Positions 4,435-52,215 of a stretch of DNA of 64,000 nt are shown here, piece by piece. Location: contig JAJZKW010000001.1 in NCBI GenBank assembly GCA_021803945.1, forward strand, positions 77,127 through 141,126, in the 5' to 3' direction. This DNA is from Candidatus Micrarchaeota archaeon. Its GTDB lineage: Archaea > Micrarchaeota > Micrarchaeia > Micrarchaeales > CABMGC01. The notes beneath the pieces are model-generated. The model made no database searches, was not told the origin of the DNA, and worked only from the letters and a program-made list of their open reading frames with translations. The position numbers were made by a program, and so were the translations under genes. The number at the start of each line of letters is the position of its first letter. Position 1 is the stretch's first letter.

Positions 4435-4469
4435 TATTCCAGGCGTTTAATGATGTGACAGCCGAACTG
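4435..4469. repeat. Direct repeat (distal copy) duplicating the last ~11 codons plus stop of the parvulin gene
   Basis: tattccaggcgtttaatgatgtgacagccgaactg vs 5399-5433 tattctaggcgtttaatgatgtgatagccgaattg, 32/35 identical, same orientation. The minus-strand reading of the distal copy is QFGCHIIKRLE*, versus QFGYHIIKRLE* in the real gene. Confidence 0.85.
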
Positions 4470-4496
4470 GCGAGTACATCCTTGAATACAGAGACG

Positions 4497-4811
4497 CTAG
4501 GCTCTTAATTGATTCAACAATCTAATAAGTTCATTGAAAACCAGTATTTTCTTGGGTTTATCCAAATGAAATAATATCTTTATTATTCTTTTTTCGGATA
4601 TAGTAAAGATGTAGTTTAATTTGATCACGCTGTCCTTTATTGCACCTTCTGTTCTTGTTATAGGGATTCCTTTCATCTCAGGATTACTGGTTATGCCAGC
4701 AACTACAATATTTCCTAGGTTCTGAAATAATACTAACGCAGGTCTCTTTTTAGCTCCACTGTCATCTGTAAACGGAATGGTAGTTAGTATTACATCTCCG
4801 ACCTTAGGCAT
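4497..4811 (-). CDS. PemK/MazF-family toxin (type II TA endoribonuclease)
   Basis: 104-aa ORF. PKVGDVILTTIPFTDDSGAKKRPALVLF...VVAGITSN matches the MazF/PemK N-terminal signature. Confidence 0.7.
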   Translation of the reverse strand: MPKVGDVILTTIPFTDDSGAKKRPALVLFQNLGNIVVAGITSNPEMKGIPITRTEGAIKDSVIKLNYIFTISEKRIIKILFHLDKPKKILVFNELIRLLNQLRA

Positions 4812-5034
4812 TCTCCCATGCCTCGTCTGCTTTATTGTCCCAAAGTTCCCTCATTTTCTCTTTTTGAGCTTCCATGACAAATTTGTCAAATTCTTCCTTC
4901 TCTTTTTCATTTTTTATGAACTCAATAAGATAGGATATTACATCGCTATAGGTCTCCCTACGGTACTTTTTGGCCTTATTAAGTTCTTCTACAACAGTTT
5001 TTTTTATTTGTATTGTAGTAACATCATTTTCCAT
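4804..5034 (-). CDS. Putative antitoxin (RHH-like) of the MazF-type module
   Basis: 76-aa ORF overlapping the toxin start by 8 nt. TIQIKKTVVEELNKAK...ETYSDVISYLI resembles RHH/CopG-type antitoxins, and the C-terminus is acidic. Confidence 0.5.
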   Translation of the reverse strand: MENDVTTIQIKKTVVEELNKAKKYRRETYSDVISYLIEFIKNEKEKEEFDKFVMEAQKEKMRELWDNKADEAWENA

Positions 5035-5397
5035 TATATCTACCTATAGTTAATATATAACAACTTATATATAAGCCTTTTGCTTGCCAAAACAGGGAAG
5101 TGACATCCCCCCACCCGTAAACGGTGTGGGCTTCCAATGGTGTCTTTTTGATTGATAAAAGTAATCTTTGATAAACTTGCAGAAAGAGCAGATAAAGGCA
5201 GGGCACTTTCCGTAGAGTTGCAAAATATGCCATTTGGAACCTATGGACAGTTTAAGGATAGGTATGGCGTTCCGTGGAAATTCAAAGGAGATAAGAAAGA
5301 ATAAATACGCCGTGCTTATTCTCCAAGGTGGCTTCTGAAACATAGACACCACATTAGTAGAGAGCAGTAGACTCGCATACTCTATTTTCAATAAACC

Positions 5398-5673
5398 TTA
5401 TTCTAGGCGTTTAATGATGTGATAGCCGAATTGCGTCCTTACAATGCCAGACACCTGGCCTTTCTCAAGCGCAAATGCCGCAGACTCGAACTCCTTCACC
5501 ATCACTCCCCTTCTGAACGTCCCGAGGTCTCCTCCTCTCCTCCTAGACCCATCTATCGAATACTGCTCTGCGAGCTTCGAGAATGACTCTCCCTTGCCTA
5601 TCTTTGCAAGGATCTCCTTCGCCAGCTGCTCCTTCTCCACAAGTATGTGCGCGCATCTTATCTCGTTTGTCAT
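5398..5673 (-). CDS. Parvulin-type peptidyl-prolyl cis-trans isomerase (PpiC-like)
   Basis: Last 91 aa of the 248-aa track ORF. MTNEIRCAHILVEKEQLAKEI...GGDLGTFRRGVMVKEFESAAFAL...QFGYHIIKRLE is a complete single parvulin domain. ATG at 5673-5671 verified in sequence. Confidence 0.8.
   Translation of the reverse strand: MTNEIRCAHILVEKEQLAKEILAKIGKGESFSKLAEQYSIDGSRRRGGDLGTFRRGVMVKEFESAAFALEKGQVSGIVRTQFGYHIIKRLE
5399..5433. repeat. Direct repeat (proximal copy) = genuine 3' end of the parvulin gene
   Basis: See 4435-4469. Confidence 0.85.
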
Positions 5674-5681
5674 ATATACAC

Positions 5682-6431
5682 CTAATCCTCCCTCCACTTC
5701 GACTTCTTTATGGCAAGCCCTGCCACTATGGCGGAGACTATGATTATCACTGCCCAGTCTATTAATATTGTGGTATTGCTGAACGAAATGAGCCCGGTTG
5801 CGTTCTGTACGATCTCCGCAGCGTATGTCGCAGGCGAGATGTATGCAAGATAACGGAAAGGCAGGGGGATGAAGGTTATGGGATAATATACTGGCGGCAG
5901 GGCCGATATTATCGTGGACACTATCCCGGAGAATGCCCAGCTCTGCACTATGTCTGACGAATATGTCGAAAGTATGAAACCAAGCGATACAGAGAACACG
6001 AACATTATCGCAAGCACTGCTATTATGGCCAGATAGCCAGCCGCATTCGAGCTTATGTAAAGGGCCGCAAGCACTGCGAGTACTATCAAGGCCGGCATAG
6101 AGTACACTATCTCGGACAGCGCCATCCCCACAAGGTAGATCCACGAGCTTGTGGGCGAGCTTACGACCATGTCCTGCACCTTGAAGTCGTTCTTGAGGTG
6201 CGAAAGGTCCTGCTGGAGGCTCGTCCCAGCAGATATCATGGTCATTATCAGCGCGCCTCCTACTGCGATAGGTAGCAGCGAGCCGCGGCTGACGAAAGTG
6301 ATCACTATCAGTAGTGAGAACGGAGCAAGAAGCGTGCTGATGAGAACTATCGGATAATTTATCATGGCATATATGGCATTAACCATGATCGACGCGTTTA
6401 GCTGGCTAATAAGGCTTCTCTTCATCTTCAT
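5682..6431 (-). CDS. ABC-2 type transporter permease
   Basis: 249-aa ORF with about six hydrophobic segments. It overlaps the end of the upstream ATPase gene. Confidence 0.65.
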   Translation of the reverse strand: MKMKRSLISQLNASIMVNAIYAMINYPIVLISTLLAPFSLLIVITFVSRGSLLPIAVGGALIMTMISAGTSLQQDLSHLKNDFKVQDMVVSSPTSSWIYLVGMALSEIVYSMPALIVLAVLAALYISSNAAGYLAIIAVLAIMFVFSVSLGFILSTYSSDIVQSWAFSGIVSTIISALPPVYYPITFIPLPFRYLAYISPATYAAEIVQNATGLISFSNTTILIDWAVIIIVSAIVAGLAIKKSKWRED

Positions 6432-7335
6432 ACTGCTCCTCCTCTATGGGCTTTTTGACTATATAATAGAATATATCCTCAAGGGCAAGGGGATTCATCG
6501 AAAACCGCACCTTCCTGTCTATCAGCTCCTTTGACAGCCTGTTCGCCTCGCTTTCAGTAGTGACTATCTGGTACTGTCCATCGACCCCTCTTATTATGTC
6601 ACCGTATTTAGGCTTTATCATTCCTGTTTTTGAGAGTATCTTTATGCTGTACGGGTATTTCACCTTCCTCCTAAGCTCTTCCATTGTGCCGAGTGCCATG
6701 ATCTTTCCGCCTTCAAGTATGCCTATCTTGTCTGCAAGCTTCTCCGCCTCTTCCAGATAGTGCGTGGTCAGGAATATGAAATGATCCTTTTTCAGCTTCA
6801 TCAGGGTCTTCCATAGCTCGTCCCTAGATATCGGGTCAAGCCCAGTAGTGGGCTCATCAAGGAAGAGTATCCTGGCTTCCGATGACATTGCCATTGCGAC
6901 AAGCACCTTCCTCTTCGTCCCGCCGGAAAGGACTCTGTTCGGGCTGTCCATATACTTCTGTATGCCAAGCCTCTTCATGGCTTCATTCATCCTGTGCGTG
7001 GACTCCTTTATGGAGAATCCGCGCCACATCAGGTACGACACTATGAACTGCTTCGGAGTCACCCATCCGACAGCCCTGGCCTCCTGCGGTACGCAGGCTA
7101 TTATGTCCCTGAGCCTTCCCTCCTGTTCCACCACGTCTATTCCGTCTATAGTTGCGCTTCCGGATGTAGGGAGCAGCTGCGTAGAAAGGATGCGTATCAG
7201 CGTTGTTTTGCCTGCGCCGTTCCTACCTATAAGTGCAAATATGCCCTTCGCAGGTATTGAGAAGTTCACATCGCTAAGGGCGTACTTGCCTTTCTCGTAT
7301 CTCTTCGATATATGGTCGCAGATAAGCGTCTTCAT
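6406..7335 (-). CDS. ABC transporter ATP-binding protein
   Basis: Walker A GRNGAGKTT, signature LSGGTKRKV, Walker B ILFLDEPTTGLD. The track ORF starts at 7353, but I prefer the MKTLICDHI start at 7335 given the upstream TATA-like element. Confidence 0.85.
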   Translation of the reverse strand: MKTLICDHISKRYEKGKYALSDVNFSIPAKGIFALIGRNGAGKTTLIRILSTQLLPTSGSATIDGIDVVEQEGRLRDIIACVPQEARAVGWVTPKQFIVSYLMWRGFSIKESTHRMNEAMKRLGIQKYMDSPNRVLSGGTKRKVLVAMAMSSEARILFLDEPTTGLDPISRDELWKTLMKLKKDHFIFLTTHYLEEAEKLADKIGILEGGKIMALGTMEELRRKVKYPYSIKILSKTGMIKPKYGDIIRGVDGQYQIVTTESEANRLSKELIDRKVRFSMNPLALEDIFYYIVKKPIEEEQYEDEEKPY

Positions 7336-11547: not shown

Positions 11548-13032
11548 ACTCCAGTCGATGCTGCTGGAGGACACTGCTATCAGATTTCGACAGCCATGCA
11601 AGTCAGCTCAACGGCTTCGTTGGGCGGCGTACGGCTCAGTAACGCGTGGTCAATCTACCGCAGAGAGGGGGATAACGTTGGGAAACTGACGCTAATACCA
11701 CATAGGTTAGGAACTCTGGAAAGAATCCCAATCTAAAGGGTTGCAAATTGCAGCATTACCGCTCTGCGATGAGACTGCGTCGGATCAGGCAGATGGCGGG
11801 GTAACGGCCCACCATACCTTTGACCCGTATGGGATATGAGAGTAAGAGCCCAGAGAAGGGCACTGAGACAATGGCCCTAGTGCTACGGCATGCAGCAGGC
11901 GCGCAAACTCCACAATGCGCATACGCGTGATGGGGGGAATCTGAGTGGTTCACTTCGGTGAATCTTTTGCCGAGTTTAGCAAGCTCGGAGAATAAGTGCT
12001 GGGTAAGACCGGTGGCAGCCGCCACGGTAATACCGGCGGCACAAGTGGTGTTCACAATTATTGGGCTTAAAGCGTTAGTAGCCGGCTGAAACAGTCTTGT
12101 GTGAAATGTTGGTGCATGACATCAACACGTGCATAAGATACCTTTCGGCTAGGGAGTGGGAGAGGTCAGGAGTATTCATGGGGTAAGGGTAAAATCTCGT
12201 AATCCTATGAAGACTACCGGTGGCGAAGGCGCCTGACCAGAACATATCCGACGGTGAGTGACGAAGGCCAGGAGAACGAATCGGATTAGATACCCGAGTA
12301 GCCCTGGCAGTAAATGATGCAGACTCTGGTGTTGCATTTGCCACGAGCAAATGCAGTACCGTAGGACAACTGTTAAGTCTGCCGCCTGGGGAGTACGGCC
12401 GCAAGGTTGAAACTTAAAGCAATTGGCGGGGGAGCACACAAGGGGTGGATGCTACGGTTCAATTGAATTCTACGTCGGGAACTTTACCTGGAGCGACGGC
12501 AGTGTGAAGGCCAGGCTAATGACCTTGCCTGACAAGCCGAGAGGTGGTGCATGGCGATCGTCAGTTCGTGGTGTGAACTCTCCGGTTAAGTCCGGTAACG
12601 AACGAGATCCTCGTTGACAGTTGCTACTGGTTCAGAGATGAATCAGGCACTCTGTCGAGACCGCCTGCGTTTAAGCAGGAGGAAGGAGAGGGCGACGGTA
12701 CGTCAGTATGCCCCGAATCTCCAGGGCTACACGCGGCATACAGAGGTTGGTACAATGAGTTGCTACCCAGAAATGGGATGCTAATCCCCTAAAACCAATC
12801 TAGGTTCGAATTGAGGGTTGAAACTCACCCTCATGAAGCTGGAATCCCTAGTAATCGCGTGTCACCAACGCGCGGTGAATATGTCCCCGCTCCTTGCACA
12901 CACCGCCTGCCAAGTCATCCAAGTGGGGCCTTAGTGACGCAGCATCTTAGTGGTGCTTTCGAACTAAGGTTCCGTGAGGGGGGCTAAGGCATAACAAGGT
13001 ATCCGTAGGGGAACCTGTGGATAGATCACCTC
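11548..13032 (+). rRNA. 16S (SSU) rRNA, archaeal, highly divergent, not linked to a 23S
   Basis: 5' actccagtcgatgctgctggagg...gccatgcaagtc; 530-loop region gtggcagccgccacggtaatacc; 3' aacaaggtatccgtaggggaacctgtggatagatcacctc. About 1485 nt, no intron apparent. Confidence 0.9.
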
Positions 13033-13071
13033 AAAACTTTACGAAGTTTTGCTATCAATTAAGTGTGCGTA

Positions 13072-16361: not shown

Positions 16362-17339
16362 CTAATTATCGATATGGCTTTCCGAAGTCTCTCCATCCGC
16401 CTCTTTGCGCGCAATATCAAAACCCTTCTCAAGGACGGAGATGGCATATCCTATATTCCCTGCCTTAACATATTTACCTGCTATTACCTGTATCTGCTTG
16501 TGTGCTTCCTCGTAATTGCCCATGATTGCTGACAGCTCAGCTGCGCGCTTTTCGAATTCTAAAGCATGTCGAGCCGCACCTGGATACCTCTTGTCTTCAA
16601 CCAGCCTATTTTCCATATCTGCCATCTCAAACGCCCCTATCAACGCCGATTCGCGCAGCCTTTTTGCACCTCTGATATTACCGGACTGATATAGGAGGTC
16701 TGACACCCTTTCACTCTCCACTAACACATTCATCATTAACCTCTCCGCGAAGCCAGATCTGTATAGGCCAGCGTCATGGTATCTCTTCGCTATATTTATA
16801 ACCGTATTAAAAGCCTCGTCATACTCGCCAAAAAGGACCATGAATGATAGCTGTGCATTCCTATATGCCACTGCTTCGGCGCAGGAAGCATCTATATCTG
16901 ATTTGGCTTTGGTCAGCGCTGCTGCACGGTCTTTAAGGGTTAGGTCTCTGAGTTTAGATATCGCTGTAATTGCTGCCGTGTTCCCGTCAGGATGTGATTC
17001 CCTATATAATTCCTTGAATTCTGCTATGTCCTGCCTGGCGGATTTATACCTCTCAAATATGTTTTTTTCTAAGACCTCAGCTTTTGAACGGAGGATGTCG
17101 AGGGTTTCCATTCGGGTATCATCCGCCTCTTTCTTCATGCCTGCCATGGACTGCACCATGGCTAAATCCCCCCTCAGATGTATTAGTGCGGCAACTCCCT
17201 TGAAGTCAAGGTTGTCCGGGTTTATGCCCTCCAGCTTTTTCCGGTATAACGGTACCATTTGGTAGGCGTACCAGGCAGACATAATGCCATTTTTTTGCAA
17301 AGCAAGTTTACCTGCAGGTGGCTTGACAGATTCCATCAC
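16362..17339 (-). CDS. All-alpha TPR/SNAP-like repeat protein, paralog A (unknown function)
   Basis: 325-aa ORF. Alignable by eye with the neighbouring 326-aa ORF: VPLYRKKLEGI / IPLYQKKIQGL, and DASCAEAVAYR...FGEYDEAFNTVINIAKRYHDA / DSRCDEVITYR...IGDYERAFETAFNTMAKYNDA. Confidence 0.5.
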   Translation of the reverse strand: MMESVKPPAGKLALQKNGIMSAWYAYQMVPLYRKKLEGINPDNLDFKGVAALIHLRGDLAMVQSMAGMKKEADDTRMETLDILRSKAEVLEKNIFERYKSARQDIAEFKELYRESHPDGNTAAITAISKLRDLTLKDRAAALTKAKSDIDASCAEAVAYRNAQLSFMVLFGEYDEAFNTVINIAKRYHDAGLYRSGFAERLMMNVLVESERVSDLLYQSGNIRGAKRLRESALIGAFEMADMENRLVEDKRYPGAARHALEFEKRAAELSAIMGNYEEAHKQIQVIAGKYVKAGNIGYAISVLEKGFDIARKEADGETSESHIDN

Positions 17340-17399: not shown

Positions 17400-18380
17400 T
17401 TAATCGCGGCCTATGGACTTAAACCCTGTCAGCTTATCCGTTTCAAAACTGCTAGAATCCAGCGCTATCCCAAAATCCAGGAGGGATATGGCGATATCGT
17501 CATTGCTCTTTTTAGCATGCTTATCTGCAGCTGTTTTGATATAACTGTAAGCTTCGCCTTCTCTCCCCAGGCGCATTAATATCATTGCCACGTGCTTTTC
17601 CAGCTCTGCCTCGAGGCTTACAATATCAGGGATGTTATCAGCCAATTTCCCAACTATCGACACTGATTCCTCTGCACTTTTCAACGAGATCTCCAGGAGC
17701 TTTAATGCTTCCGGAACTCTCTTTTCACTGGCCAGGAAGGCTGCTACGTCTTCGCTATTGGCTACCAATCCAATCATAAACGCCTCGGCAGGTCCGAATA
17801 TGCTGGCATCGTTGTATTTTGCCATCGTGTTGAACGCAGTTTCGAAGGCTCTTTCATAATCGCCAATGAGGAGCATCATTGTTGCCGATATAACCCTATA
17901 TGTTATGACTTCGTCGCAGCGACTATCCATATCCTCCCTTTCTTCTTCTATGGACTTTTGAAGCTCTTCAAGCCTGTGCCAGGAGAACTCCGACGCCGCT
18001 GAGGCAATTGCTCTGTTGCCACCTGCCGATATCGAATCATGTAATTCCTTTGCTGTCTTTTCATGCTGCTTTTCAACGCCTGCCTTTTTGAACATATCTT
18101 CCTCTAATGCATTGACTTTTGAATCAATAATGCGCACCGATTCGGCCCTTGTAGCAACGGATTCGCTTATCATGCCCAAACTATATTGAAGTGAGGCTAT
18201 TCTGTCACGGTCCTGGATTAAATCGATACCGCGTTTTGAATCTAGCCTAGCAAGGTCCAAGCCCTGTATCTTCTTTTGGTATAATGGTATCAACTGCTGC
18301 AGGTATTCCCGCTCTCTTGCGCTTAACCCGCGCTTTTCTGGGTTGCCTTGCAGCACCTTTACGCTTGCCATCCTAACCAA
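17400..18380 (-). CDS. All-alpha TPR/SNAP-like repeat protein, paralog B (unknown function)
   Basis: 326-aa ORF, tandem paralog of 16362-17339 (see that feature). Confidence 0.5.
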   Translation of the reverse strand: MVRMASVKVLQGNPEKRGLSAREREYLQQLIPLYQKKIQGLDLARLDSKRGIDLIQDRDRIASLQYSLGMISESVATRAESVRIIDSKVNALEEDMFKKAGVEKQHEKTAKELHDSISAGGNRAIASAASEFSWHRLEELQKSIEEEREDMDSRCDEVITYRVISATMMLLIGDYERAFETAFNTMAKYNDASIFGPAEAFMIGLVANSEDVAAFLASEKRVPEALKLLEISLKSAEESVSIVGKLADNIPDIVSLEAELEKHVAMILMRLGREGEAYSYIKTAADKHAKKSNDDIAISLLDFGIALDSSSFETDKLTGFKSIGRD

Positions 18381-27203: not shown

Positions 27204-27323
27204 GCCAAGGTTGCGGAATCTGGTTAACGCGCCGGTCTTGAATTTAATTCAAGAGCTGATCTCGTGATGCAAAAGAAAACCGGTTCCCTTCGGGGATTTA
27301 GGGTTCAAATCCCTACCTTGGCG
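27204..27323 (+). tRNA. tRNA-Ser (anticodon UGA) with a ~35-nt intron at the canonical 37/38 position
   Basis: Acceptor gccaagg/ccttggc plus G73; D arm tgcg..cgcg; anticodon stem ccggt/accgg with loop ctTGAa; long variable arm tcccttcgggga; T arm agggttcaaatccct. Intron ~27243-27277 contains attcaag, complementary to the anticodon region. No encoded CCA. Confidence 0.8.
27312..27323 (+). repeat. att-like core, copy 1 (3' end of tRNA-Ser UGA)
   Basis: cctaccttggcg. Identical 12-mers occur in the same orientation at 28791-28802 and 33242-33253. Confidence 0.7.
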
Positions 27324-27555
27324 CACCTCTTATTTTGTCGTAGTGAAATTTGATTTTATTATACTTCTTGTCAGTATGTGAATCCACACATGGAATTGGC
27401 CGGCATGGCGCAAGCACAGTCGGTGGGTTTCAATGTATATTTGGGAGAAAACAGATTACTTTCTCTCATAAAATGGTGTTATATGGCGAAAACTTAGGAA
27501 TATCTCTAAAACGCAACACTTATTAAGCTCTTACTGCTAAATTTCTTCGGTTAAC

Positions 27556-28389
27556 TTGGCTGCAAACAATAAAATTAAGGACAAAAACCCTAAGAAAAAA
27601 CACACGAAATTAATGGCAGGCCTTATCATAACTGCTGTGGTTATAATTCTGCTGCTTTATTTATACGAAACATATGGCAGCCTTCCTTCAGGGCTTGCTA
27701 CGGCTGTGTTGTCTGGAAAACCTCTAACTGCGTCGGAGATGCAAACTCTTCTACTGCAGAAAATGTCATCATATGCGTACTTTAAGGCTAATTACACTGG
27801 AAATATAACCATCAATACTGACCCACCATTATCTGTGCTTATATACAAGGACGGATTAAATTACATATATAACATTACATTTTACAATATGCCAAATATC
27901 GGCAATCTTGACATAAACTATATAGATCCAGTCAATGGCAATTTACAGGGAGAATATCTCTGTGTATCCTCTAGCATTACTTCAATAGCAACTAAGCTGA
28001 ACACGGAACCCAATGTGGCAATATGCAAGAATCCTTCCAATCATCCCATTTTCTCAGGAAAAGTGGCAAATCTACTTGTAAATGCATCGAGTTTGGAGAA
28101 CCTAAACATAACGAATTATGGTCTGTCAGAATTTAATGGCCAGCCGTGCTACGCAGTAGCTGGCATAGGTACAATAGAGATTAATAGCAGTATAATGAGC
28201 AGCACTTCAGGACCGACCATCCCTGCTAACATTAGTTTTAATACCTGTTTATCGGCCCAGTATAATTTGCCACTCAATCTAGATATGAAGATACGGGCTT
28301 CTAACGGAGTTACTATGTCTGTGCGTCTGTACAGCTACATGATGGGTCCATCTGGTCCATTTACCCTAGGCTTCGGTAATATTGCATAA
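27556..28389 (+). CDS. Membrane-anchored extracellular protein, N-glycosylation-sequon rich (unknown function)
   Basis: 277-aa ORF (TTG start; alternative start MAGLIITAVV...). One N-terminal TM helix, then many N-x-S/T sequons (NYT, NIT, NAS, NIT, NSS, NIS) and conserved Cys residues. Confidence 0.5.
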   Translation: MAANNKIKDKNPKKKHTKLMAGLIITAVVIILLLYLYETYGSLPSGLATAVLSGKPLTASEMQTLLLQKMSSYAYFKANYTGNITINTDPPLSVLIYKDGLNYIYNITFYNMPNIGNLDINYIDPVNGNLQGEYLCVSSSITSIATKLNTEPNVAICKNPSNHPIFSGKVANLLVNASSLENLNITNYGLSEFNGQPCYAVAGIGTIEINSSIMSSTSGPTIPANISFNTCLSAQYNLPLNLDMKIRASNGVTMSVRLYSYMMGPSGPFTLGFGNIA

Positions 28390-28790
28390 CTGTGATCTAA
28401 AACACGCAAGGAAAACATATTGAAAGCGGGTTGCCAGGTATATGGACATACCTATACCAAACGCGGATACTGTCGTTCATCAGACTCATCTATATCATTT
28501 CAAATATTCTAAATCCTCTAATAACAAGAACCCATCATAGCATTAAGGAATTTGTGATTCCTGGTGATAGGGCAGTAGGCTGTATTTTGTCCCTTTTATG
28601 AACCTGCCCTATCCTCTTCCTGATGAAGCTTCTTTAGAAATACACTCTAGGTTGTCGTTAAACAGCATATCTCGCCCAGAGCCGATATTTGTATGCTCTT
28701 AGAAAAGAGACTGTTGAAACGCAAATTTTAATGTTTTTATATCCCTTAGGATATAGATGAAGCTTAGGCGTCATCTTGGCAAGTAAAAGG

Positions 28791-28802
28791 CCTACCTTGG
28801 CG
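28791..28802 (+). repeat. att-like core, copy 2
   Basis: cctaccttggcg inside a 666-nt stretch with no convincing ORF. Confidence 0.65.
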
Positions 28803-29055
28803 TAGTATTTAATATGCTATAGCCTTCCTTTTAAGTCCTACAGCAATCATTTGACTAAAAGTAATGCTTCAATGGTCACTAAATGCGCAATGCCTTTTTC
28901 TGTCTCCCTAGCCATCCGTTCGACGAAGTTCGAAATCACTGCGCCTACCTTCCATATATAATCCAAACCACCGGAACTAACAGGATTAGTCGACACAGCA
29001 AACCTACCATACAGATTAATATATCAGATAATGAATTAACAATTCTGGTAAAATT

Positions 29056-29904
29056 ATGGCCTCAAAAACAAAAGATAGCCAGTCTCCTGGCTCAGAAAAC
29101 CAGCAACCTAGGACATATGATGTAACTTTAGCATGGCCTGCAGGCAATATCACCGCGTTAGTGCGTGGCATGGTTCCGGCATCTAGCAAGAAGCCTATAA
29201 ATGACAGAATATTGGGAATGTTTCCTAATGTTGAACAGGTAGGCTTCTATTCGGAAGAAAGAAACAGACCGGCATTGGAGATGGCAGGCGGAGAGTTTTG
29301 TGGGAATGCTCTACGCTCGGTAGCATATTTGATTCTCGAGGGAAAGCCAGGAGAGGCATTATTCAGCGTCTTTGGCGTAGAACAGAAGCTTGTAGCCGGA
29401 GTGCGGGAAGAAGGCTCTGCATTTGCACAGATACCTCTCAGTAGAGAATTTGATACGATAAGAAAATTAAATGGTGGGATGTGGCAGGTTGACCTAGATG
29501 GCATATCACACATTGTAGTAAAGGTCACGAAGGCGCTGGGCGAAGAGCAGGCAAAACTCGTTGCAAAAGAATTACTAACAAAAACAAATCTGCTTGAAGA
29601 TAAACCTGCATCTGGAGTGATGTTTATTAGAGAGACGGACCTTGAAGGTGTCTTGGAAATGGAGCCTGTTGTCTTTGTTAGGGGAATACAGACATTCTTC
29701 TATGAGACTGCCTGCGCCAGTGGAACATCTGCAGTAGGAATATGGTATAACCAGGAAAGCGGTGCAGAAGATACGCTGCTAAAGGTCAGGCAACCAAGCA
29801 GAGAGGTGCTTGATGTCAGGGTCAGGAAAAACAACGGGCAGCTTGAGGACGTGTTCATCGAAGGTCCTATGAAAATATTACAAAGAACCGAAGTGAGCAT
29901 ATGA
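29056..29904 (+). CDS. DapF/PhzF-fold epimerase/racemase-like protein
   Basis: 282-aa ORF. N-terminal WPAGNITALV (compare the GNDF strand of DapF). Two pseudo-symmetric Cys motifs, GGEFCGNALRSVAY and ETACASGTSAVG, sit where DapF-family catalytic cysteines lie. Confidence 0.55.
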   Translation: MASKTKDSQSPGSENQQPRTYDVTLAWPAGNITALVRGMVPASSKKPINDRILGMFPNVEQVGFYSEERNRPALEMAGGEFCGNALRSVAYLILEGKPGEALFSVFGVEQKLVAGVREEGSAFAQIPLSREFDTIRKLNGGMWQVDLDGISHIVVKVTKALGEEQAKLVAKELLTKTNLLEDKPASGVMFIRETDLEGVLEMEPVVFVRGIQTFFYETACASGTSAVGIWYNQESGAEDTLLKVRQPSREVLDVRVRKNNGQLEDVFIEGPMKILQRTEVSI

Positions 29905-30485
29905 AAGGTATGAAAACAATACAGACAAAATCGGGTCTGTTGGCTGTACTTAGAGACTATTCAACAGCGGATAGGGAATCTGTAGTAGAACTTTTTAGAA
30001 AAGCATTTTCTGGACCGCCATACTTTGAAAACAACCCTTCAGAGGTAATTAGAGACTTGTTCAGAACTTACGAGATGGAACCTGACCTTTTTTTTCATGT
30101 TGTGACGCCTATTCAGAATGGTGAAGGAGAAACGGTCATCGGATTGAGTATAGCATACAGACTGGACCTCTCAAAATTCCGATGTTTAGAAGTCCCATTT
30201 GAAGAAATGGGCATTTCAATAAATTCGCATAATATAGCATACGGGGCTGAGTTAGCTGTCGAACCTGGAGAGCGATGGAGAAACCAAGGAATTGCAACAA
30301 TCATGATGGCAGAAAGGATACGACTAGTCAGAGAAGCAGGATTTGACTATTTGATAGGAAGGACTCGTTTTGACAGTTTTACAAATCCCATATACGCGAG
30401 GTTCGGCTTCATCCGTATCGAAGGGCTAGCCGATCCAGATTTTCCAGAACGTCGCTATTTTGTCAAGGATCTGAATAGTGCTTAG
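29901..30485 (+). CDS. GNAT family N-acetyltransferase
   Basis: 194-aa ORF with an ATGA overlap with the upstream gene. Acetyl-CoA motif A: VEPGERWRNQGIATIMMAERIRLVREAGF. Confidence 0.65.
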   Translation: MKGMKTIQTKSGLLAVLRDYSTADRESVVELFRKAFSGPPYFENNPSEVIRDLFRTYEMEPDLFFHVVTPIQNGEGETVIGLSIAYRLDLSKFRCLEVPFEEMGISINSHNIAYGAELAVEPGERWRNQGIATIMMAERIRLVREAGFDYLIGRTRFDSFTNPIYARFGFIRIEGLADPDFPERRYFVKDLNSA

Positions 30486-31194
30486 AATGGGCATATCAGA
30501 AATTCATAATAGGCTGGAACGAAGGATGATTACTTATCGTGACCTGATTTCTATCAAGGTAAATGACAATGGGGACCGCATCGTCCCGCTCGAAAAGGAC
30601 AAGATTCTTTTTGGCTACATGCCAGAACTTTCAGACATGAAAGTGATATTGGGAGATACTATTTTTGTCAGAGAGGGCACCTATGACAAATTGCTGAAGG
30701 CACAACACAGCCTGAAGACCAAAAATCCGAACCTGTCTTTATATGTGACTTATGGCTATAGAAGCCTTAAAATCCAGACGGAACGTTTCATGCTCCGGCT
30801 TAAGGAGTGCGCTAATATTTATTTCCAGAATCCTGAAGACCTATACGAAGAGGTGCACAGGTCTATTGCTGTACCGTCAGTGGCAGGACATCCTACGGGA
30901 GGAGCTGTTGACATTAAAATAATAGATATACCAAGTGGCAAATTCTTGGATTTTGGATCAGAACAATACAATTATTCCAACAAGAAGTATTATGTTTATT
31001 CGCCTAATGTTAAGGGCAAGGCTATGAGTAATAGGATGTTGCTTAGAGAATGTATGGTTGGCGCAGGTTTTGCTCCGTTCGATGGAGAATGGTGGCATTT
31101 CTCATATGGAGATAGAGAGTGGGCGTGCTTTTATAAAAAGCACACTGCTTTATACGATCAGATCAAAGTAAGTGAACTTGATAAATTTAAGTAG
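30478..31194 (+). CDS. VanX/DdpX-like D-alanyl-D-alanine dipeptidase (peptidase M15D)
   Basis: 238-aa ORF (GTG 30478 or ATG 30487). Zn-ligand motifs SVAGHPTGGAVDI (SxHxxGxAxD) and EWWHFSYGD. Confidence 0.7.
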   Translation: MLRMGISEIHNRLERRMITYRDLISIKVNDNGDRIVPLEKDKILFGYMPELSDMKVILGDTIFVREGTYDKLLKAQHSLKTKNPNLSLYVTYGYRSLKIQTERFMLRLKECANIYFQNPEDLYEEVHRSIAVPSVAGHPTGGAVDIKIIDIPSGKFLDFGSEQYNYSNKKYYVYSPNVKGKAMSNRMLLRECMVGAGFAPFDGEWWHFSYGDREWACFYKKHTALYDQIKVSELDKFK

Positions 31195-31417
31195 TGTCAC
31201 TTTTCTGCTATAGCATAAAACACATCAAGTAAATGGAAATCACTGAAAAACATTATAAAAAATGGACAGATCTAAAGGCAAAGATAGAAAATCTCTTCTA
31301 GTGGCAAAAAGGAGAAAAGATTAGGCTATATGATTGAAGCGAATGGTAATAAATCTATTTCAGGTTGATCCAACTATAACTTATTATTAAGATTTGTATG
31401 TATATAATGGGACAAAC

Positions 31418-33130
31418 ATGAGGCATGACCATAAACTAGAAACCAAAACACTTACAATTGAGGGGAAAAACCTTACCATTAACGACGTTGTCAGAGTGGG
31501 ATTAGCTAGACCAGGAGATATCAATATACTGCTTTCAGAGTCTGCAGCAGAAAAAATCAATAAGTCAAGAAAGATTGTTGAAAAGATATTAGACGATGGG
31601 CTCATTGTATATGGTATAAACACGGGCTTTGGCTCTTATGCAGAAAAAGTCATATCGAGGGAGGAGACAGAGCTATTGCAGCGGTATCTAATAAAGAGCC
31701 ACGCCACAGGTGCAGGCGATCCCTACAGTCCAGAGATAATACGTTCGGCAATGCTCATACGCGCGAATACTCATGCTAGAGGCAATTCAGGAATACGGCT
31801 CAAACTAGTCCAGATTCTATTAGATATGCTGAATAAAGGCGTAGTTCCATACGTCCCCGAGCACGGATCTCTTGGTGCAAGCGGCGATTTGGCACCGCTT
31901 TCTCACATTGCACTATGCCTTTCAAAAGACCCTAAGTCAAACCGAGCTGAAGAAAGGCTCACTAAAAAGGCGAAAGCCGGAGAAACGTTTACTATACAGG
32001 AGACCAGAGAGGCAATCAAAGAATCAGGAGAGGCATATCTATGGCAGGGCTCATCTTGGGTAAAGATGACTGGTATAGAAGCCATGGCAAAAGCCGGTAT
32101 TGATAGAATAGCCCTTGAGGCAAAAGAGGGCCTTGCACTGAACAACGGGTGCAGCGTGTCTGCTGCCACATCCTGTTTTGTAATTCATTTTGGCGAGAGA
32201 GCGCAGCAATCTGCAGATCTGATAGCTGCTCTGGTGATGGAGGCTGTGGGTGGTTTTGAGTCCGCATTTTCTTGTGAAATTAACGATAGTAGACCCTACT
32301 ACGGACAGATGGAAGTAGCAAGACGTATCAGAGAATACATAAAGGACAGTGGCGTGGCAAAGCATGTAGACGAGATACAAAACTCGAAGAATGTGATGAA
32401 TGACTTCAACAAAGTGCAAGATTCCTACTCCATAAGGTGCATACCTCAGGTCCACGGACCTGTTCTAGACGCATTGGAATATGCAAAGTCTGTGATAAGT
32501 ATAGAGATAAACGCTGCAACAGACAATCCTCTTATCTTTCCAGACTCCAACTATATCAACAAGGCATTCAGTGGGGGCAACTTCCACGGACAAAATATAT
32601 CTCTTTCAATAGACTTCCTTAGCATTGCGCTATGTACGCTTGGAAATATTTCGGAAAGGCGGATATTCAAACTGATGGAAAACAGACTCAACGGAGGTCT
32701 TCCTGATTTTCTCATACACCCGGTAAGCGGGAAGCATGGTCTGATGAGCGGGGCAATGATAATGCAATACACTGCCGCATCACTCGCCTCTGAAAACAAA
32801 GTGTTGTCGCACCCTGCATCTGCAGACAGCATAACTTCAAGTGCAGATCGGGAGGACTTCGTAAGCATGGCTCCGATAAGTGCAAGGAAGACCTATAGGA
32901 TACTTGACAACCTCGAGAATATACTTGCGATAGAGTGCTGGTGCTCAATAATTGCGCTAAGACTCAGGCATGAAGAAAAGGCAAAACTAAGCAGAACAGC
33001 TACCAACACATTGAATTTCATGAAAGAAGACATATCTGAATTCAATGAAGATCGGGTAACATACGATGAGGTCAAGTGGATAAAGTCGCTTATACACTCA
33101 GGCGAATTGTTAAAGGCTGCAAGCAAGTAA
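31418..33130 (+). CDS. MIO-dependent aromatic amino acid/histidine ammonia-lyase or aminomutase (HAL/PAL family)
   Basis: GSLGASGDLAPLSHIAL (the Ala-Ser-Gly MIO triad), YGINTGFG, NNGCS, QDSYSIRC, TDNPLIF. About 25-30 extra residues follow the MIO loop relative to typical HutH. I prefer the ATG at 31418 to the track's TTG at 31394. Confidence 0.8.
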   Translation: MRHDHKLETKTLTIEGKNLTINDVVRVGLARPGDINILLSESAAEKINKSRKIVEKILDDGLIVYGINTGFGSYAEKVISREETELLQRYLIKSHATGAGDPYSPEIIRSAMLIRANTHARGNSGIRLKLVQILLDMLNKGVVPYVPEHGSLGASGDLAPLSHIALCLSKDPKSNRAEERLTKKAKAGETFTIQETREAIKESGEAYLWQGSSWVKMTGIEAMAKAGIDRIALEAKEGLALNNGCSVSAATSCFVIHFGERAQQSADLIAALVMEAVGGFESAFSCEINDSRPYYGQMEVARRIREYIKDSGVAKHVDEIQNSKNVMNDFNKVQDSYSIRCIPQVHGPVLDALEYAKSVISIEINAATDNPLIFPDSNYINKAFSGGNFHGQNISLSIDFLSIALCTLGNISERRIFKLMENRLNGGLPDFLIHPVSGKHGLMSGAMIMQYTAASLASENKVLSHPASADSITSSADREDFVSMAPISARKTYRILDNLENILAIECWCSIIALRLRHEEKAKLSRTATNTLNFMKEDISEFNEDRVTYDEVKWIKSLIHSGELLKAASK

Positions 33131-33241
33131 AGGGCACTGCAGTCGTATGGGTAATAGAACTTCAACCTCAGGCAGAGACATCTCATAATACCAAATACTG
33201 TTAAACAATATGTTCTGTACGAAGAACTAAAATGTCTATGA

Positions 33242-33253
33242 CCTACCTTGGCG
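33242..33253 (+). repeat. att-like core, copy 3 (distal island boundary)
   Basis: cctaccttggcg, 112 nt after the HAL-family stop codon. Confidence 0.65.
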
Positions 33254-36795: not shown

Positions 36796-38097
36796 TTATG
36801 GCTCGAGCCTGTTCGACATCCTTGGGAATGGTATTGCATCCCTGATGTGGTCCAGATTGAGCATCCACTTTATCACTCTTTCTATGCCCATCCCGAAGCC
36901 TGAGTGGGGCACAGAGCCATACTTCCTAAGTTCGATCCACCAATTATAGTTATTCATGTTGAATTTTATCCCCTTTGCCTGTTCCACTTCATGCATCCTT
37001 TCCATAAGCTCATCATATCTCCATATCCTTTCGCTCCCTCCTATTATCTCCCCATGACCCTTTGGCGCCTGCAGGTCTGCGCACAGGACGGTCCTTTCAT
37101 CCCTTGGGTTTATCGGCATATAGAATGGCTTTATCTCCTTCGGCCAGTTATATATGAACATGGGCTTTTCTTCCGCCTCAGTAAGAGCCTTTTCCTCTTC
37201 CACTCCCAGGTCATCTCCCCACTTGAGCTTTAAGCCCTTATCATTCAGGATTGATAGAGCTTCCTCGTAGCTTACCCTCTTGAACGGTGGCCTTATCTTC
37301 AGTAGGTCGTCCTTGTCCGCTCCGAGCGATTTCAATATGTCATCGTTCCTGGATGCGAGCCTCTCTGCTATGTGTGATATGAGCTTCTCTTGGATAGCCA
37401 TGCTCTGCTTGTTGTTCAGGTAAAGCATCTCAGGTTCAAGGTGCCAGTACTCGGCTAGGTGCTTGGTCGTCCTGGAGTTCTCCGCCCTGAATGATGGTGC
37501 AAAAGAATACACTCTCTCGAGGGAAAACGCCATGGCTTCAGCATAGAGCTGCGAAGACTCGGTGAGATACGCCTTGCTACCGAAGAAATCCGTCTCGAAG
37601 AGGTTTGCACCAGTCTCTCCTGCCGATTTAGTCAGTATGGGAGGAGTTATCTCAAAGAACCCTTTCTTGTCAAGGAATTCGCGTGCGTATCTGAATATAT
37701 ACGATCTTGCCTTCATTATGTTTATCATCTTCTGGCTTCTCAGCCATAGGTGCCTCTTGTCAAGCAGAAGCTCAGTACTTTGGTACTCTGTAATTGGAAA
37801 CGGTTCCGAGACGTTTATGTTCTTGAATGAGCTTGCCGTAAGCTCATAACCCGTAGGAGACCTCTTGTCCTCCTTGACCGTTCCTTCGACTTCAACGCTT
37901 GATTCCACTGTCGCTTCGCTTGCCATGCGCCAGGATCTTTCGTCCACGCTGTCCTTCTTGATGGCAACCTGCATGATGCCGCTCATGTCTCTGAGCACTA
38001 TGAATATTATGCCTCCGCTCCCCCTCTTTCTATGCACCCATCCAGATAGTGCTATCTCTTTTCCCGGCTTTTTTATCGCGCCTGATATATGCAACAT
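36796..38097 (-). CDS. asnS: Asparaginyl-tRNA synthetase
   Basis: 433-aa ORF. GWVHRKRGSGGIIFIVLRD OB fold; FRAENSRTTKHLAEYWHLEPE; WGDDLGVEEEKALTE; GEIIGGSERI; YGSVPHSGFGMGIERV. Closely colinear with Pyrococcus AsnRS as I recall it. Confidence 0.85.
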   Translation of the reverse strand: MLHISGAIKKPGKEIALSGWVHRKRGSGGIIFIVLRDMSGIMQVAIKKDSVDERSWRMASEATVESSVEVEGTVKEDKRSPTGYELTASSFKNINVSEPFPITEYQSTELLLDKRHLWLRSQKMINIMKARSYIFRYAREFLDKKGFFEITPPILTKSAGETGANLFETDFFGSKAYLTESSQLYAEAMAFSLERVYSFAPSFRAENSRTTKHLAEYWHLEPEMLYLNNKQSMAIQEKLISHIAERLASRNDDILKSLGADKDDLLKIRPPFKRVSYEEALSILNDKGLKLKWGDDLGVEEEKALTEAEEKPMFIYNWPKEIKPFYMPINPRDERTVLCADLQAPKGHGEIIGGSERIWRYDELMERMHEVEQAKGIKFNMNNYNWWIELRKYGSVPHSGFGMGIERVIKWMLNLDHIRDAIPFPRMSNRLEP

Positions 38098-49944: not shown

Positions 49945-50565
49945 ATGAGCATTGATAATGTAGCTCTTTTTGACATGGATGGAACCTTGTGCGATTATGA
50001 CGGGCAGATATTGAAGGATCTGGAAAGGCTAAGAGGAGACGAAGAGCCGCATTTCGTAGGGCCGATAAGGAAAGGGCCAGATCACATCAAGGCCAGGGTA
50101 GATGCTATAACTGCGACTTCGGAGTGGTGGAAGAACCTGCCAAAGCTTGAGCTGGGATGGGAGATATTGAAGATAGCGCAGGAGCAGGGATACAGAATAA
50201 TGATACTCAGCCAGGCTCCGATTGACAATCCAGAGGCATGGTCAGGCAAAATCAAATGGCTGCAGAAGCACCTTCCCGATGTAGACATGACTTTGACAAG
50301 GGACAAGGGGCTGGTGTATGGGAAGCTCCTTGTGGATGACTATCCTGAATACATACTCCGCTGGCTTACGTGGAGGAGAAACGGACTTGTGATCATGCCT
50401 TCTAATGACTCAAATTCTGGTTTTGAGCATAAGCAGGTGATCAGATACGACGGATCGAATATTGAGGAGATAAAGCAGGCTATGACGCGACTGAAGGAAG
50501 CGTCTGGACTTGAGCAGATGGCCAGGGACATGCCAAAGAGCGCAAAACGCGTTTTCAATCGCTGA
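49945..50565 (+). CDS. 5'(3')-deoxyribonucleotidase-like HAD phosphatase (NT5C family)
   Basis: 206-aa ORF. LFDMDGTLCDY motif I, KIKWLQKHLP, LLVDDYPEY. Confidence 0.6.
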   Translation: MSIDNVALFDMDGTLCDYDGQILKDLERLRGDEEPHFVGPIRKGPDHIKARVDAITATSEWWKNLPKLELGWEILKIAQEQGYRIMILSQAPIDNPEAWSGKIKWLQKHLPDVDMTLTRDKGLVYGKLLVDDYPEYILRWLTWRRNGLVIMPSNDSNSGFEHKQVIRYDGSNIEEIKQAMTRLKEASGLEQMARDMPKSAKRVFNR

Positions 50566-50654
50566 TGCCTGCTGATGGGCTCTAATTAAAGCCTCATTTA
50601 AATGGGGGTTCGGGAGAGGTTCATTTTCTTGGCGCTTTCCTTATTTAAAGGGGT

Positions 50655-51329
50655 GTGCACATAGAAGTTATAGGTGAAGATACGATTAAATTGGTAATCT
50701 TTGATTATGATGACACATTAGTCAGGTCTCATGATTATTTGTATAGTTTAGATGCGCAAACAGCAAGAAATCTTGGCTTAACCCCTCCAAATAAAAATGA
50801 TTATTTTTCGCTTTGGGGCAGGCCTCATTCAGAAATGATTGCTAACCTTTATCCAAATGCAGATATTGAAAGGTACATGCAAGAGTATACTAACATATAC
50901 AACCCAATTAACCTGAGATTTTTTGATGATGCAAAAAAGGTATTACAGGCATTATCAGCAAAGGGATTTGGGCTTGCCATTGTTTCGGCTAAGCAGAAAG
51001 GGAGGATTATTGAACACCTTGATAAACATGGTTTATCAGGATATTTTCAATATGTGCATGGGGCCGAATCAAGTCCCTACAAGAAACCTGACCCAAGAGT
51101 TTTTGATGACATCCTGGATTTTTTTAACTTGAAACCATCCGAAGCCGTTTTCATCGGAGACCAGTTATCAGACTTTGAAGCTGCTAGGAAGGCAGGCATA
51201 AATTTTGTTGCGATTACCACAGGAATTAATACAAGTGAGGAATTTTCTAGGCTAGGCTGCAGGAAGATAGAAGAAAACCTTACAGGCTGTATTGGCGCAA
51301 TTAATTCCATTACACATAAAATTCGTTAA
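50655..51329 (+). CDS. HAD-IA phosphatase (PGP-like), AT-rich gene
   Basis: 224-aa ORF (GTG start). VIFDYDDTLV, VSAK, KPDP, FIGDQLSDFEAARKAG. Visibly more AT-rich than the upstream genes. Confidence 0.65.
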   Translation: MHIEVIGEDTIKLVIFDYDDTLVRSHDYLYSLDAQTARNLGLTPPNKNDYFSLWGRPHSEMIANLYPNADIERYMQEYTNIYNPINLRFFDDAKKVLQALSAKGFGLAIVSAKQKGRIIEHLDKHGLSGYFQYVHGAESSPYKKPDPRVFDDILDFFNLKPSEAVFIGDQLSDFEAARKAGINFVAITTGINTSEEFSRLGCRKIEENLTGCIGAINSITHKIR

Positions 51330-51399
51330 AAAAATTGGCTGGAGTTTACACACAAGTATGATTCCTTGTTTTCAGAAGGCAGCTTTTGTCTAAGAGAAA

Positions 51400-51417
51400 A
51401 AACGCTGGGTACGAGAA
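51400..51417. repeat. Direct repeat (distal copy) duplicating the 3' end of tRNA-Ser(GCU)
   Basis: aaacgctgggtacgagaa is identical (18/18, same orientation) to 52198-52215, which covers 15 nt of the tRNA 3' end plus 3 flanking nt. Confidence 0.85.
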
Positions 51418-51513
51418 CAGGAATTTTGTTCAGCCCTTAACCACTATACGAAGATTTGCGGATAAATATTTAAATGCAAAAGATTTAAATATATGTGATG
51501 TAAATATATCTAT

Positions 51514-51750
51514 ATGACGAAGACAATAACAGTAAGCGTTGAGGAAGAATCTGAGAAGAGGTTTAGGAAGGCGGCTTATGTTAAATACGGAAGGCGAAAG
51601 GGCGCTTTGGGCAAGGCATTGTCAGAAGCGATAAAGAACTGGGCTGAGCAGAATCAGGATATGGCAGATGAGCATTTACTCAAACTCATGAATAAAGGGT
51701 TTAAGATGGGGAAGATACTAGGCAACAGGAGTGAATGGCATGGAAGATAA
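51514..51750 (+). CDS. vapB: VapB-type antitoxin (RHH-like)
   Basis: 78-aa ORF. TITVSVEEESEKRFRKAA... Overlaps the PIN gene start. Confidence 0.6.
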   Translation: MTKTITVSVEEESEKRFRKAAYVKYGRRKGALGKALSEAIKNWAEQNQDMADEHLLKLMNKGFKMGKILGNRSEWHGR

Positions 51751-52171
51751 ATCATTCTATGATACCTCGGTCTTGGTCTATGCATTTGACGCTAGCGATC
51801 CTAAGAAACATGAGATTTGTGTTAATATGATGAATGAGTTAATAAACTCTGGAAAAGGAGCGTTTATATCAAATCAGATACTCGGAGAGCTTTTTAGCGT
51901 ACTTACTGAAAGCATCTCAATTCCGATTGATAAGAAGCTGGCTTCGGAGATAATAAACGATTTTGTTGCGGCAAAAAGCTGGGTAAAATATAATTATACC
52001 TATAATACTGTTAGAAATGCAGCCAAAGCCTCAGATGAATACAGAGTGCATTTTTGGGACGCGCTTATAGCCGAAACGATGAAAGAAAATGGGATTAATA
52101 CTATAGTTACGGAAAATGTTAAAGACTTTAAGAGAGTGCCTGGAATAAAGGTAGTGAATCCGTTCGAATGA
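51740..52171 (+). CDS. vapC: PIN-domain ribonuclease toxin VapC
   Basis: FYDTSVLVYAFD (first acidic residue), ...GELFSVL..., FWDALIAETMKENGINTIVTENVKDF. Start placed at MEDKSF (51740). Confidence 0.75.
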   Translation: MEDKSFYDTSVLVYAFDASDPKKHEICVNMMNELINSGKGAFISNQILGELFSVLTESISIPIDKKLASEIINDFVAAKSWVKYNYTYNTVRNAAKASDEYRVHFWDALIAETMKENGINTIVTENVKDFKRVPGIKVVNPFE

Positions 52172-52197
52172 TACATATCCTGTTTTTGAATGAGCAT

Positions 52198-52215
52198 AAA
52201 CGCTGGGTACGAGAA
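52198..52215. repeat. Direct repeat (proximal copy) = tRNA-Ser(GCU) 3' end
   Basis: See 51400-51417. Confidence 0.85.

Follow-up and report, generated by a model that had tools for sequence, protein, structure and literature searches.

Integrase-less inserts flanked by gene-tail repeats at three chromosomal sites of a Micrarchaeota archaeon

Mobile elements of archaea use tRNA genes and the 3'-distal portions of protein genes as integration targets, form tandem arrays, and can have attachment (att) sites as short as 8 bp (PMC6563490). They are defined by their integrase, and the smallest one described measures 2.6 kb (PMC6563490); some integrated archaeal elements carry no integrase, which was presumably lost after integration (PMC8371274). 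Here, we analyzed a 64-kb stretch of a Micrarchaeota chromosome (the window) that contains three AT-rich inserts, located 3' of a parvulin gene (site 1), a tRNA-Ser(GCU) gene (site 2), and a tRNA-Ser(UGA) gene (site 3). The inserts share with archaeal tyrosine-recombinase elements (Thaumarchaeota, Sulfolobales, Thermococcales cryptic elements, proviruses; PMC6563490, PMC8371274) the repeats equal to the tail of the target gene, the rebuilt target, the short att sites, the tandem integration, the foreign composition, and a cargo of VapBC or other toxin-antitoxin (TA) systems. They differ in that the units span 0.6 to 4.4 kb in this lineage, lack an integrase, and reside in a DPANN host. We found no description of such elements in DPANN archaea in the literature searched. 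Integration at the tail of a gene, tandem arrays, and TA cargo are a known kind of event; new are the integrase-less units of one operon, the arrays parted by tRNA-tail cores, and the occurrence in Micrarchaeota.

A second comparison is offered by the cis-mobilizable elements (CIMEs) reportedly observed in Streptococcus, which accrete in tandem where integrative conjugative elements (ICEs) have their att sites. CIMEs are bacterial, several kilobases long, and dependent on a known ICE family, and they can be mobilized by the integrase of a neighboring element. The inserts resemble CIMEs in being att-flanked, nonautonomous DNA without recombination or transfer genes that forms arrays by re-use of att sites; moreover, CIMEs are thought to derive from autonomous elements by deletion, as in the reading that we favor below. 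Unlike CIMEs, the inserts have no known cognate autonomous element, their units can be as small as one operon, and their mobilization is hypothetical.

Three inserts bracketed by copies of gene tails

The initial annotation of the window, made by a model from the sequence, had proposed that the same pattern occurs three times, with AT-rich inserts flanked by copies of the 3' end of the adjacent gene. Our analysis located these repeats at the expected places and found no other such arrangement in the window (Table 1). Each insert is bracketed by copies of the tail of its target gene and, as had been noted, lies on the 3' side of the target in the target's own orientation at all three sites. All three targets are intact: both tRNAs score above the Rfam gathering threshold, and the parvulin gene is full length with a conserved C terminus. 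The G+C content (GC) is 0.364 for insert 1 versus 0.49 for its flanks, 0.376 for insert 2 versus 0.45 to 0.47, and 0.387 and 0.424 for the two segments of island 3 versus 0.46 to 0.47. Inserts 1 and 2 and both island 3 segments have att-type copies on both sides and no recombination or transfer genes inside.

As a chance test, all k-mers were counted across the whole window. Only two same-strand exact repeats of at least 18 nucleotides (nt) occur within 6 kb, namely those of sites 1 and 2, and the sole 12-mer with three copies inside 6.5 kb is the core of site 3. For background, a 12-mer has a same-strand copy within 6 kb at 0.16% of the window positions. The concern that short repeats of this kind might be equally frequent at random positions is therefore not borne out within the window, which holds no others of such length and spacing. 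Furthermore, three matches to the site 3 core, with one mismatch allowed, were reached in 1 of 100 shuffles.

At site 1, the two direct repeats are identical at 42 of 47 positions, with a spacing of 964 nt and an 18-nt exact core, AGGCGTTTAATGATGTGA. The 35-bp repeat with 32 matches reported previously is present, although it is only the inner part of this longer repeat. The proximal copy provides the real stop codon of parvulin (QFGYHIIKRLE, then stop), and the distal copy is in frame too (QFGCHIIKRLE, then stop). The repeats enclose a MazF-like toxin gene, an overlapping antitoxin gene, and about 360 nt of other sequence. The 76-amino-acid (aa) antitoxin gave a weak VAPB_antitox match (E = 7e-4), under the curated cutoff; the gene pair is conserved in L033, one of the database contigs of the same species or of relatives that are designated here by L numbers. 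Insert 1 also harbors the remnant of a PhnB/VOC-like gene, which is 90% identical (135/150 nt) to an intact gene in L049 that has the same position and orientation, whereas the adjoining parvulin genes share only 73% of their nucleotides; this cargo is thus far more alike between the window and L049 than the two hosts' own genes are. The presence of the remnant indicates that insert 1 is composite and partly decayed. The proposal that two of the inserts carry nothing but a TA pair consequently holds for insert 2 and fails for insert 1.

At site 2, the 18-mer AAACGCTGGGTACGAGAA was found in two exact copies 798 nt apart, in agreement with the earlier reading; it covers the 15 terminal nt of tRNA-Ser(GCU) and the 3 nt that follow, and the similarity extends to 27 of 33 positions. 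Between the repeats, nothing is encoded but a VapB-like protein and a PIN-domain VapC. The VapB-like gene is always directly upstream of the PIN gene and overlaps it in six genomic contexts. Based on their domains and the overlapping small upstream gene, the MazEF-like and VapBC pairs are predicted type II TA operons. Just beyond the distal repeat, an AT-rich HAD hydrolase gene may represent older cargo with a decayed outer att site, although its membership is uncertain; a search to the left of this gene revealed no further tRNA-tail copy that could mark an older att site. The HAD gene call differs among contigs of the same species (164 versus 224 aa), suggesting a polymorphism or a frameshift.

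At site 3, the 12-nt core CCTACCTTGGCG occurs in three exact plus-strand copies, as had been reported. The tRNA-Ser(UGA) gene, which ARAGORN missed, contains an intron of approximately 35 nt after position 37, with anticodon and intron read by eye; an intron-bearing tRNA-Ser(UGA) adjoins gatCAB in eight Micrarchaeota loci, and the intron is conserved. The three cores delimit two segments, and the island carries no TA system. The four-gene block of segment 3B (29056 to 33130), a horizontal acquisition, may encode a small-molecule pathway. In comparisons of island 3 with plasmid and phage collections, the plasmids matched over just 82 nt, in a bacterial M15 peptidase gene, and the phages not at all.

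Table 1. Target genes, repeats, and cargo at the three sites in the window
Feature	Position	Strand	Remarks
Site 1
Distal direct repeat, attR-like	4423..4469		Displaced parvulin 3' end
MazF/PemK-like toxin gene	4497..4811	-	104 aa; PF02452, E = 5.5e-9; GC 0.34
Antitoxin gene of MazEF-like pair	4804..5034	-	76 aa; 8-nt overlap with toxin gene
PhnB/VOC-like pseudogene remnant	5154..5303	+	C-terminal 50 codons, 150 nt
Gene-proximal direct repeat, attL-like	5387..5433		Last 36 nt of parvulin gene including stop, plus 11 nt beyond
Parvulin-type peptidyl-prolyl isomerase gene (target)	5398..5673	-	PF13616, E = 1.9e-25
Site 3
tRNA-Ser(UGA) gene, intron-bearing (target)	27204..27323	+	Rfam RF00005, 45.5 bits
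Core copy 1, CCTACCTTGGCG	27312..27323	+	Last 12 nt of tRNA up to discriminator base
Island segment 3A	27324..28790	+	1.47 kb; open reading frame (ORF) 27556-28389, 277 aa, no family match
Core copy 2, CCTACCTTGGCG	28791..28802	+	
Island segment 3B	28803..33241	+	4.44 kb; four ORFs
ORF for uncharacterized protein, segment 3B	29056-29904		282 aa
ORF with weak GNAT match, segment 3B	29901-30485		Below curated cutoff
M15/VanX-like peptidase gene, segment 3B	30478-31194		D-Ala-D-Ala dipeptidase type
Aromatic amino-acid lyase gene, segment 3B	31394-33130		
Core copy 3, CCTACCTTGGCG	33242..33253	+	
Site 2
HAD hydrolase gene	50655..51329	+	GC 0.375; just beyond distal repeat; may be older cargo
Distal direct repeat	51385..51417		Exact 18-mer 51400-51417
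VapB-like antitoxin gene	51514..51750	+	78 aa; no Pfam match; palindromes upstream (51455-51507)
VapC (PIN-domain) toxin gene	51740..52171	+	143 aa; PF01850, E = 1.8e-11
tRNA-proximal direct repeat	52183..52215		Exact 18-mer 52198-52215
tRNA-Ser(GCU) gene (target)	52200..52285	-	ARAGORN; Rfam, 58.5 bits

Occupancy of the sites in related genomes

The relatives of the window's GatA (64 to 74% identity) all come from Candidatus Micrarchaeota metagenome-assembled genomes, and the parvulin orthologues in Micrarchaeota are 77 to 93% identical. The parvulin slot is empty in three contigs (L035 to L037; parvulin, 85%), in which Alba follows 124 nt after parvulin and the gene order is that of the window: S3Ae, S15, a tRNA synthetase, an ABC transporter, parvulin, Alba, CBS, and aspartyl-tRNA synthetase (AspRS). 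The closest relative (L033; parvulin, 93%) holds 2.1 kb in the slot, comprising VapBC, an uncharacterized ORF on the opposite strand, and MazEF; its flanks are 87 to 90% identical to the window at the nucleotide level, and its MazEF only 65%. The 20-nt core of the distal repeat, TGTCACATCATTAAACGCCT, which includes the odd Cys codon, is identical in L033 and lies there between the uncharacterized ORF and MazEF, a layout that is what the stacking of successive elements at one att site would be predicted to look like. In the more distant L049, a 590-nt insert contains one PhnB/VOC-like gene followed by a second in-frame parvulin tail (VGYHIIKRLD, then stop). Relatives represented by short contigs, among them L041, L042, and L044, have other cargo directly 3' of parvulin, namely a RibD_C-type reductase, or a glyoxalase-like gene with an insertion sequence (IS) 200-type transposase, or an IS4-type transposase. 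When the parvulin-tail copies were compared with orthologous tails, the signals as to which copy is original to the host were mixed: each copy shared two states with relatives and had two of its own.

For site 2, the closest relative, and the sole one available, is L015, which has tRNA-Ser(GCU) and eIF2-beta with neither VapBC nor a repeat, in a rearranged neighborhood. Homologues of the VapBC module (77 to 85% identical) occur in five other contexts, three of which lack an att core. One of the other contexts is L126 (positions 4630 to 6975; GCA_964419095.1, CAYQOG010000002.1, at a contig end), where three TA pairs are interspersed with four tRNA-Ser(GCU) tail cores, AACGCTGGGTAcGaG, all within 2.3 kb. 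The cores separate a VapBC that is 82% identical to that of the window at the nucleotide level, an inverted PIN pair, and an unrelated VapBC pair. The two VapBC units show no similarity in cargo, yet they have a common left boundary of 73 nt (88%) and a common right boundary of 50 nt (86%); the left boundary consists of the core followed by sequence that resumes the T-stem of the tRNA after an enlarged loop, and the toxin TGA is fused to the core in both units. Core and TA module are separated by different spacers in the window and in L126. In the 7.2 kb of L126, neither a tRNA nor an integrase was found; the contig ends 270 nt past the last core. In L124, a 16-nt direct repeat, CAATCTATTTAAAAAC, at positions 4723 and 6981 brackets VapBC, an MNT/HEPN pair, and an RHH gene. 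The L124 block sits within a mobile-element-like stretch of many small uncharacterized ORFs, with 12-nt tandem repeats at 4001 to 4060 and 6858 to 6930.

At site 3, the tRNA and gatCAB are conserved in eight relatives, and the DNA after the tRNA is different in every one. None of the window's island 3 genes was found in these eight loci; the relatives share only genes from 34.7 kb on (an alpha/beta hydrolase and a 433-aa synthetase), which lie 5 to 8 kb from gatC. In particular, L019 (2661 to 5416) and L020 (6669 to 9529) contain unrelated segments of approximately 2.8 kb that start exactly at the 3' end of tRNA-Ser(UGA), between flanks with identities of 93% on one side and 96% on the other. 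In L020, the core recurs as CTACCTTGGCGT 2.7 kb downstream. Partial tRNA tails stand right after tRNA-Ser(UGA) in L017 and L021, and IS630-like ORFs follow it in L015.

Identical proteins in an unchanged order are encoded at the inserts by contigs that stem from several samples and were assembled independently, so the architecture is not an assembly artifact. When parvulin, MazF, and VapC were looked up as exact proteins, every contig retrieved had this occupied arrangement, and no polymorphism was seen. Short-read contigs of the same species break at the cassette borders (L011 and L012 at their 3' ends, L005 and L006 at their 5' ends), with break points 11 nt after the VapC stop and approximately 27 nt away from where the PhnB-like remnant breaks off; these breaks hint at assembly-graph branching from multicopy or polymorphic junctions. 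The possibility that the inserts are ancestral in all relatives did not hold up, as sites that were empty or differently filled were found instead. Altogether, an empty parvulin site with conserved synteny, different cargo in relatives, and att cores that recur elsewhere support the three loci as true site-specific insertion sites and integration hotspots of the Micrarchaeota chromosome.

Elsewhere in the window, an archaeal 16S rRNA gene (11548 to 13034) stands alone, with no 23S rRNA gene in the 64 kb. Three class IIb synthetase genes of the AspRS or asparaginyl-tRNA synthetase type (2156 to 3445, 22384 to 24162, and 36796 to 38097) occur alongside gatCAB, the second and third of which were assigned by reading translations rather than by family search. 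Two adjacent genes (16362 to 17339 and 17400 to 18380) encode proteins of 325 and 326 aa that have only a weak TPR match and appear paralogue-like from their unaligned translations.

Integrase searches and the origin of the inserts

As the initial annotation had noted, no insert was found to encode an integrase. A Pfam scan, supplemented for some by PHROGs, of all insert ORFs and ten unassigned window ORFs gave no integrase, and none was recognized among the stop-to-stop fragments of the noncoding parts of the inserts, which were read by eye. The so-called suicidal integrases of the SSV type split their own gene on integration (PMC7253208), a mode that explains why archaeal elements, once integrated, often lack a working integrase and are trapped beside tRNA genes. 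Unlike in such cases, no Int(N) or Int(C) fragments flanking the inserts were recognized in the noncoding ends, likewise read by eye. A 101-aa ORF of L020 that runs in frame out of the tRNA-Ser(UGA) tail was considered as the start of a split SSV-type integrase and was rejected, as it received no Pfam or PHROG support. Exact searches for att patterns of 18 to 22 nt in the IMG/VR viral contigs gave no match; 19 matches of a 15-nt core in these contigs were attributed to chance, since none extends past 15 nt.

One relative does contain an integrase-bearing element. On a 194-kb contig, L121 (2449 to 6129) carries an intact 3.5-kb integrative element with a GC of 0.39 in a host of 0.52. A 259-aa tyrosine integrase (PF00589; PHROG integrase, E = 2e-18) is encoded at its start, followed by a PhnB-like gene, whose product is 89% identical to the L049 protein, and a T5orf172 protein. 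The element is flanked by perfect 46-nt repeats of a tRNA-like 3' end, and a third copy forms the tail of a tRNA-like sequence that scores 21.5 bits, under the Rfam threshold. Only about 35 nt separate the first two repeat copies, which gives the impression of an earlier element deleted down to its junction. The L121 integrase had no tblastn match in the window or in any of the loci. In L123, a PhnB-like gene stands alone 230 nt after tRNA-Thr and is followed by a 22/26 copy of part of that tRNA, with no integrase. Single-gene PhnB-like inserts with flanking repeats thus occur at two targets, parvulin (L049) and tRNA-Thr (L123). Beyond these loci, the closest database relatives of the PhnB-like gene are bacterial, mostly from Bacteroidota.

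The combination of tail-matching repeats, intact targets, foreign composition, variable occupancy, and tandem cores is the signature of integration by a tyrosine recombinase. On balance, we lean toward the inserts being reduced remnants of integrated elements that are possibly still mobilizable; which kind of recombinase acted, how events followed one another, and whether the inserts can move at present are what we infer. Circular elements would have carried an attachment site mimicking the last 12 to 47 nt of the target gene, and recombination of the tyrosine-recombinase type would have inserted them, rebuilt the target, and left the displaced tail copy at the far end. Re-use of the same site would have stacked elements in tandem, leaving site 3 with its present three cores, and the parvulin slot would hold the debris of a PhnB-like gene together with MazEF. 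Later deletions may have trimmed the elements, with the recombinase genes mostly lost after integration and the TA operons surviving because their loss is penalized. What the window contains today is nonautonomous, att-flanked cassettes of 0.8 to 4.4 kb without a recombinase; as both att copies are kept, excision or relocation by a related integrase from some other element would in principle be feasible. The truncation of the PhnB-like gene, the loss of the distal repeat in L033, and the existence of the L121 element are all consistent with an integrase that was lost once the elements had integrated, a scenario that explains much of the data as well as a recombinase acting in trans does. The suggestion that TA modules are preferentially retained gained support, in that TA pairs are overrepresented in what is left, with two in the parvulin slot of L033 and three in L126.

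Several observations weigh against decay of once-autonomous elements. In the occupied sites examined (the window, L033, L049, L123, L126, and L020), no integrase or fragment of one was seen, with the noncoding parts of the inserts read by eye. L121, the sole integrase-bearing relative, uses a tRNA-like target different from the three att sites, none of which has a known autonomous element. For the L049 and L123 inserts, the decay model needs independent and equally clean reductions. Moreover, with their shared boundaries and their fusion of stop codon and core, the L126 cassettes are too compact for random decay.

These observations bear on a tentative alternative, which we regard as possible though rather unlikely: the inserts are minimal cassettes, each made up of a single operon, a short arm that is conserved, and an att core derived from a gene or tRNA tail, that never carried a recombinase and are inserted and stacked by an enzyme encoded elsewhere, as integron cassettes depend on IntI. 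An enzyme of this kind had been suggested in the initial annotation. The L126 array, with four cores in 2.3 kb, conserved boundaries around unrelated cargo, and stops fused to the core, speaks for such cassettes and would be hard to obtain by random deletion, as there is no debris. The same VapBC (82% nucleotide identity) is accompanied by an identical core of 18 to 20 nt in both the window and L126, the single-gene PhnB-like inserts have repeats at two targets, nearly all occupied sites lack an integrase, and the cargo is small and bacterial-like (PhnB, glyoxalase, and RibD_C families). On the other hand, neither a recombinase candidate nor a circular form was found, and no polymorphism was seen, the inserts being present in every sampled contig of the species. 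The VapBC module also occurs without a core in three other contexts and so moves independently of the att sites, the core-to-TA spacers of the window are unlike those of L126, insert 1 has plainly decayed, and an integrase-bearing element with the same cargo exists in L121.

Two proposals of the initial annotation found no support. As to an active or recently active mechanism, the inserts are present in every same-species contig recovered, and cassettes shared by different genomes are only 82 to 90% identical. For a recombinase in trans, neither the enzyme nor a free element with an attP site was found among the window ORFs tested and the viral contigs.

Known systems offer partial parallels for mobilization in trans. 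Integrative mobile elements exploiting Xer (IMEX), such as CTX-phi, use the host Xer recombinase and target the single dif site. Like IMEX, the inserts are integrative, lack a recombinase of their own, and build up tandem arrays at a single chromosomal site; unlike IMEX, they occupy three unrelated target sequences, all of them gene 3' ends. With integron gene cassettes, the TA cassettes of chromosomal superintegrons, and archaeal integrons (PMC9668308), the inserts have in common that they form arrays of small, foreign, mostly single-operon cassettes without their own recombinase. As in superintegrons, interspersed TA cassettes plausibly stabilize the array, and in L126 the recombination site abuts the stop codon. 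Unlike integrons, the arrays have no IntI, attI, or attC structure; their sites are copies of tRNA or gene tails, and the array is anchored on that gene. It is conceivable, if doubtful, that Micrarchaeota harbor a family of cassettes of approximately 0.6 to 1 kb, each with a single gene or operon, a short conserved arm, and a tail-derived att core, stacked by a recombinase located elsewhere; this would amount to an integron-like capture platform with tRNA-derived att sites in place of attC and TA cassettes holding the array together.

Compared with the remnants of integrated elements that we favor, three further explanations fare poorly. Integron cassette arrays proper, with IntI acting on attI and attC, are very improbable: integrons are reported in archaeal genomes (PMC9668308), and small-cassette arrays with TA pairs and bacterial-like cargo resemble theirs, but what recurs is a literal piece of the 3' end of a tRNA or gene rather than an imperfect palindrome of the attC type, no integrase gene lies beside any array (window ORFs tested and L126), and the arrays begin at a tRNA or protein gene and not at attI. 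We give equally little credence to the repeats being target-site duplications of a DDE transposon or an IS-derived miniature element; although IS elements occupy the slots of some relatives (IS630-like in L015; IS200-like and IS4-like in L042 and L044, beside parvulin), repeat length differs from site to site (12, 18, and 47 nt), each repeat equals a target gene tail, no terminal inverted repeats were found at any insert end, and the inserts contain no transposase. Finally, it is highly unlikely that the repeats arose by chance and that the AT-rich DNA was brought in without a site-specific step, through homologous or illegitimate recombination of the ordinary sort. The site 3 core has only 12 nt, and AT-rich islands beside tRNA genes are common; even so, the window-wide count found no other comparable repeats, shuffles seldom gave three matches, the cores turn up again in other genomes, either at the same targets or flanking the same cassette, and in two genomes the distal copy of the parvulin tail is still in frame.

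Implications for gene uptake and genome reduction in DPANN archaea

Surveys of archaeal mobile elements start from integrase genes, and integrase-less, att-flanked mini-elements are therefore overlooked. In the very small, symbiont-type genome studied here, such mini-elements make up all three of the recognizable insertions in 64 kb. Besides TA systems, their cassettes import genes of bacterial type (PhnB-like in the loci described, glyoxalase and RibD_C types in relatives). If a recombinase does act in trans, DPANN archaea would possess an integron-like means of gene uptake and turnover at fixed chromosomal slots. Even as fossils, the inserts mark hotspots of fast cargo turnover among close relatives and reveal which cargo survives genome reduction.

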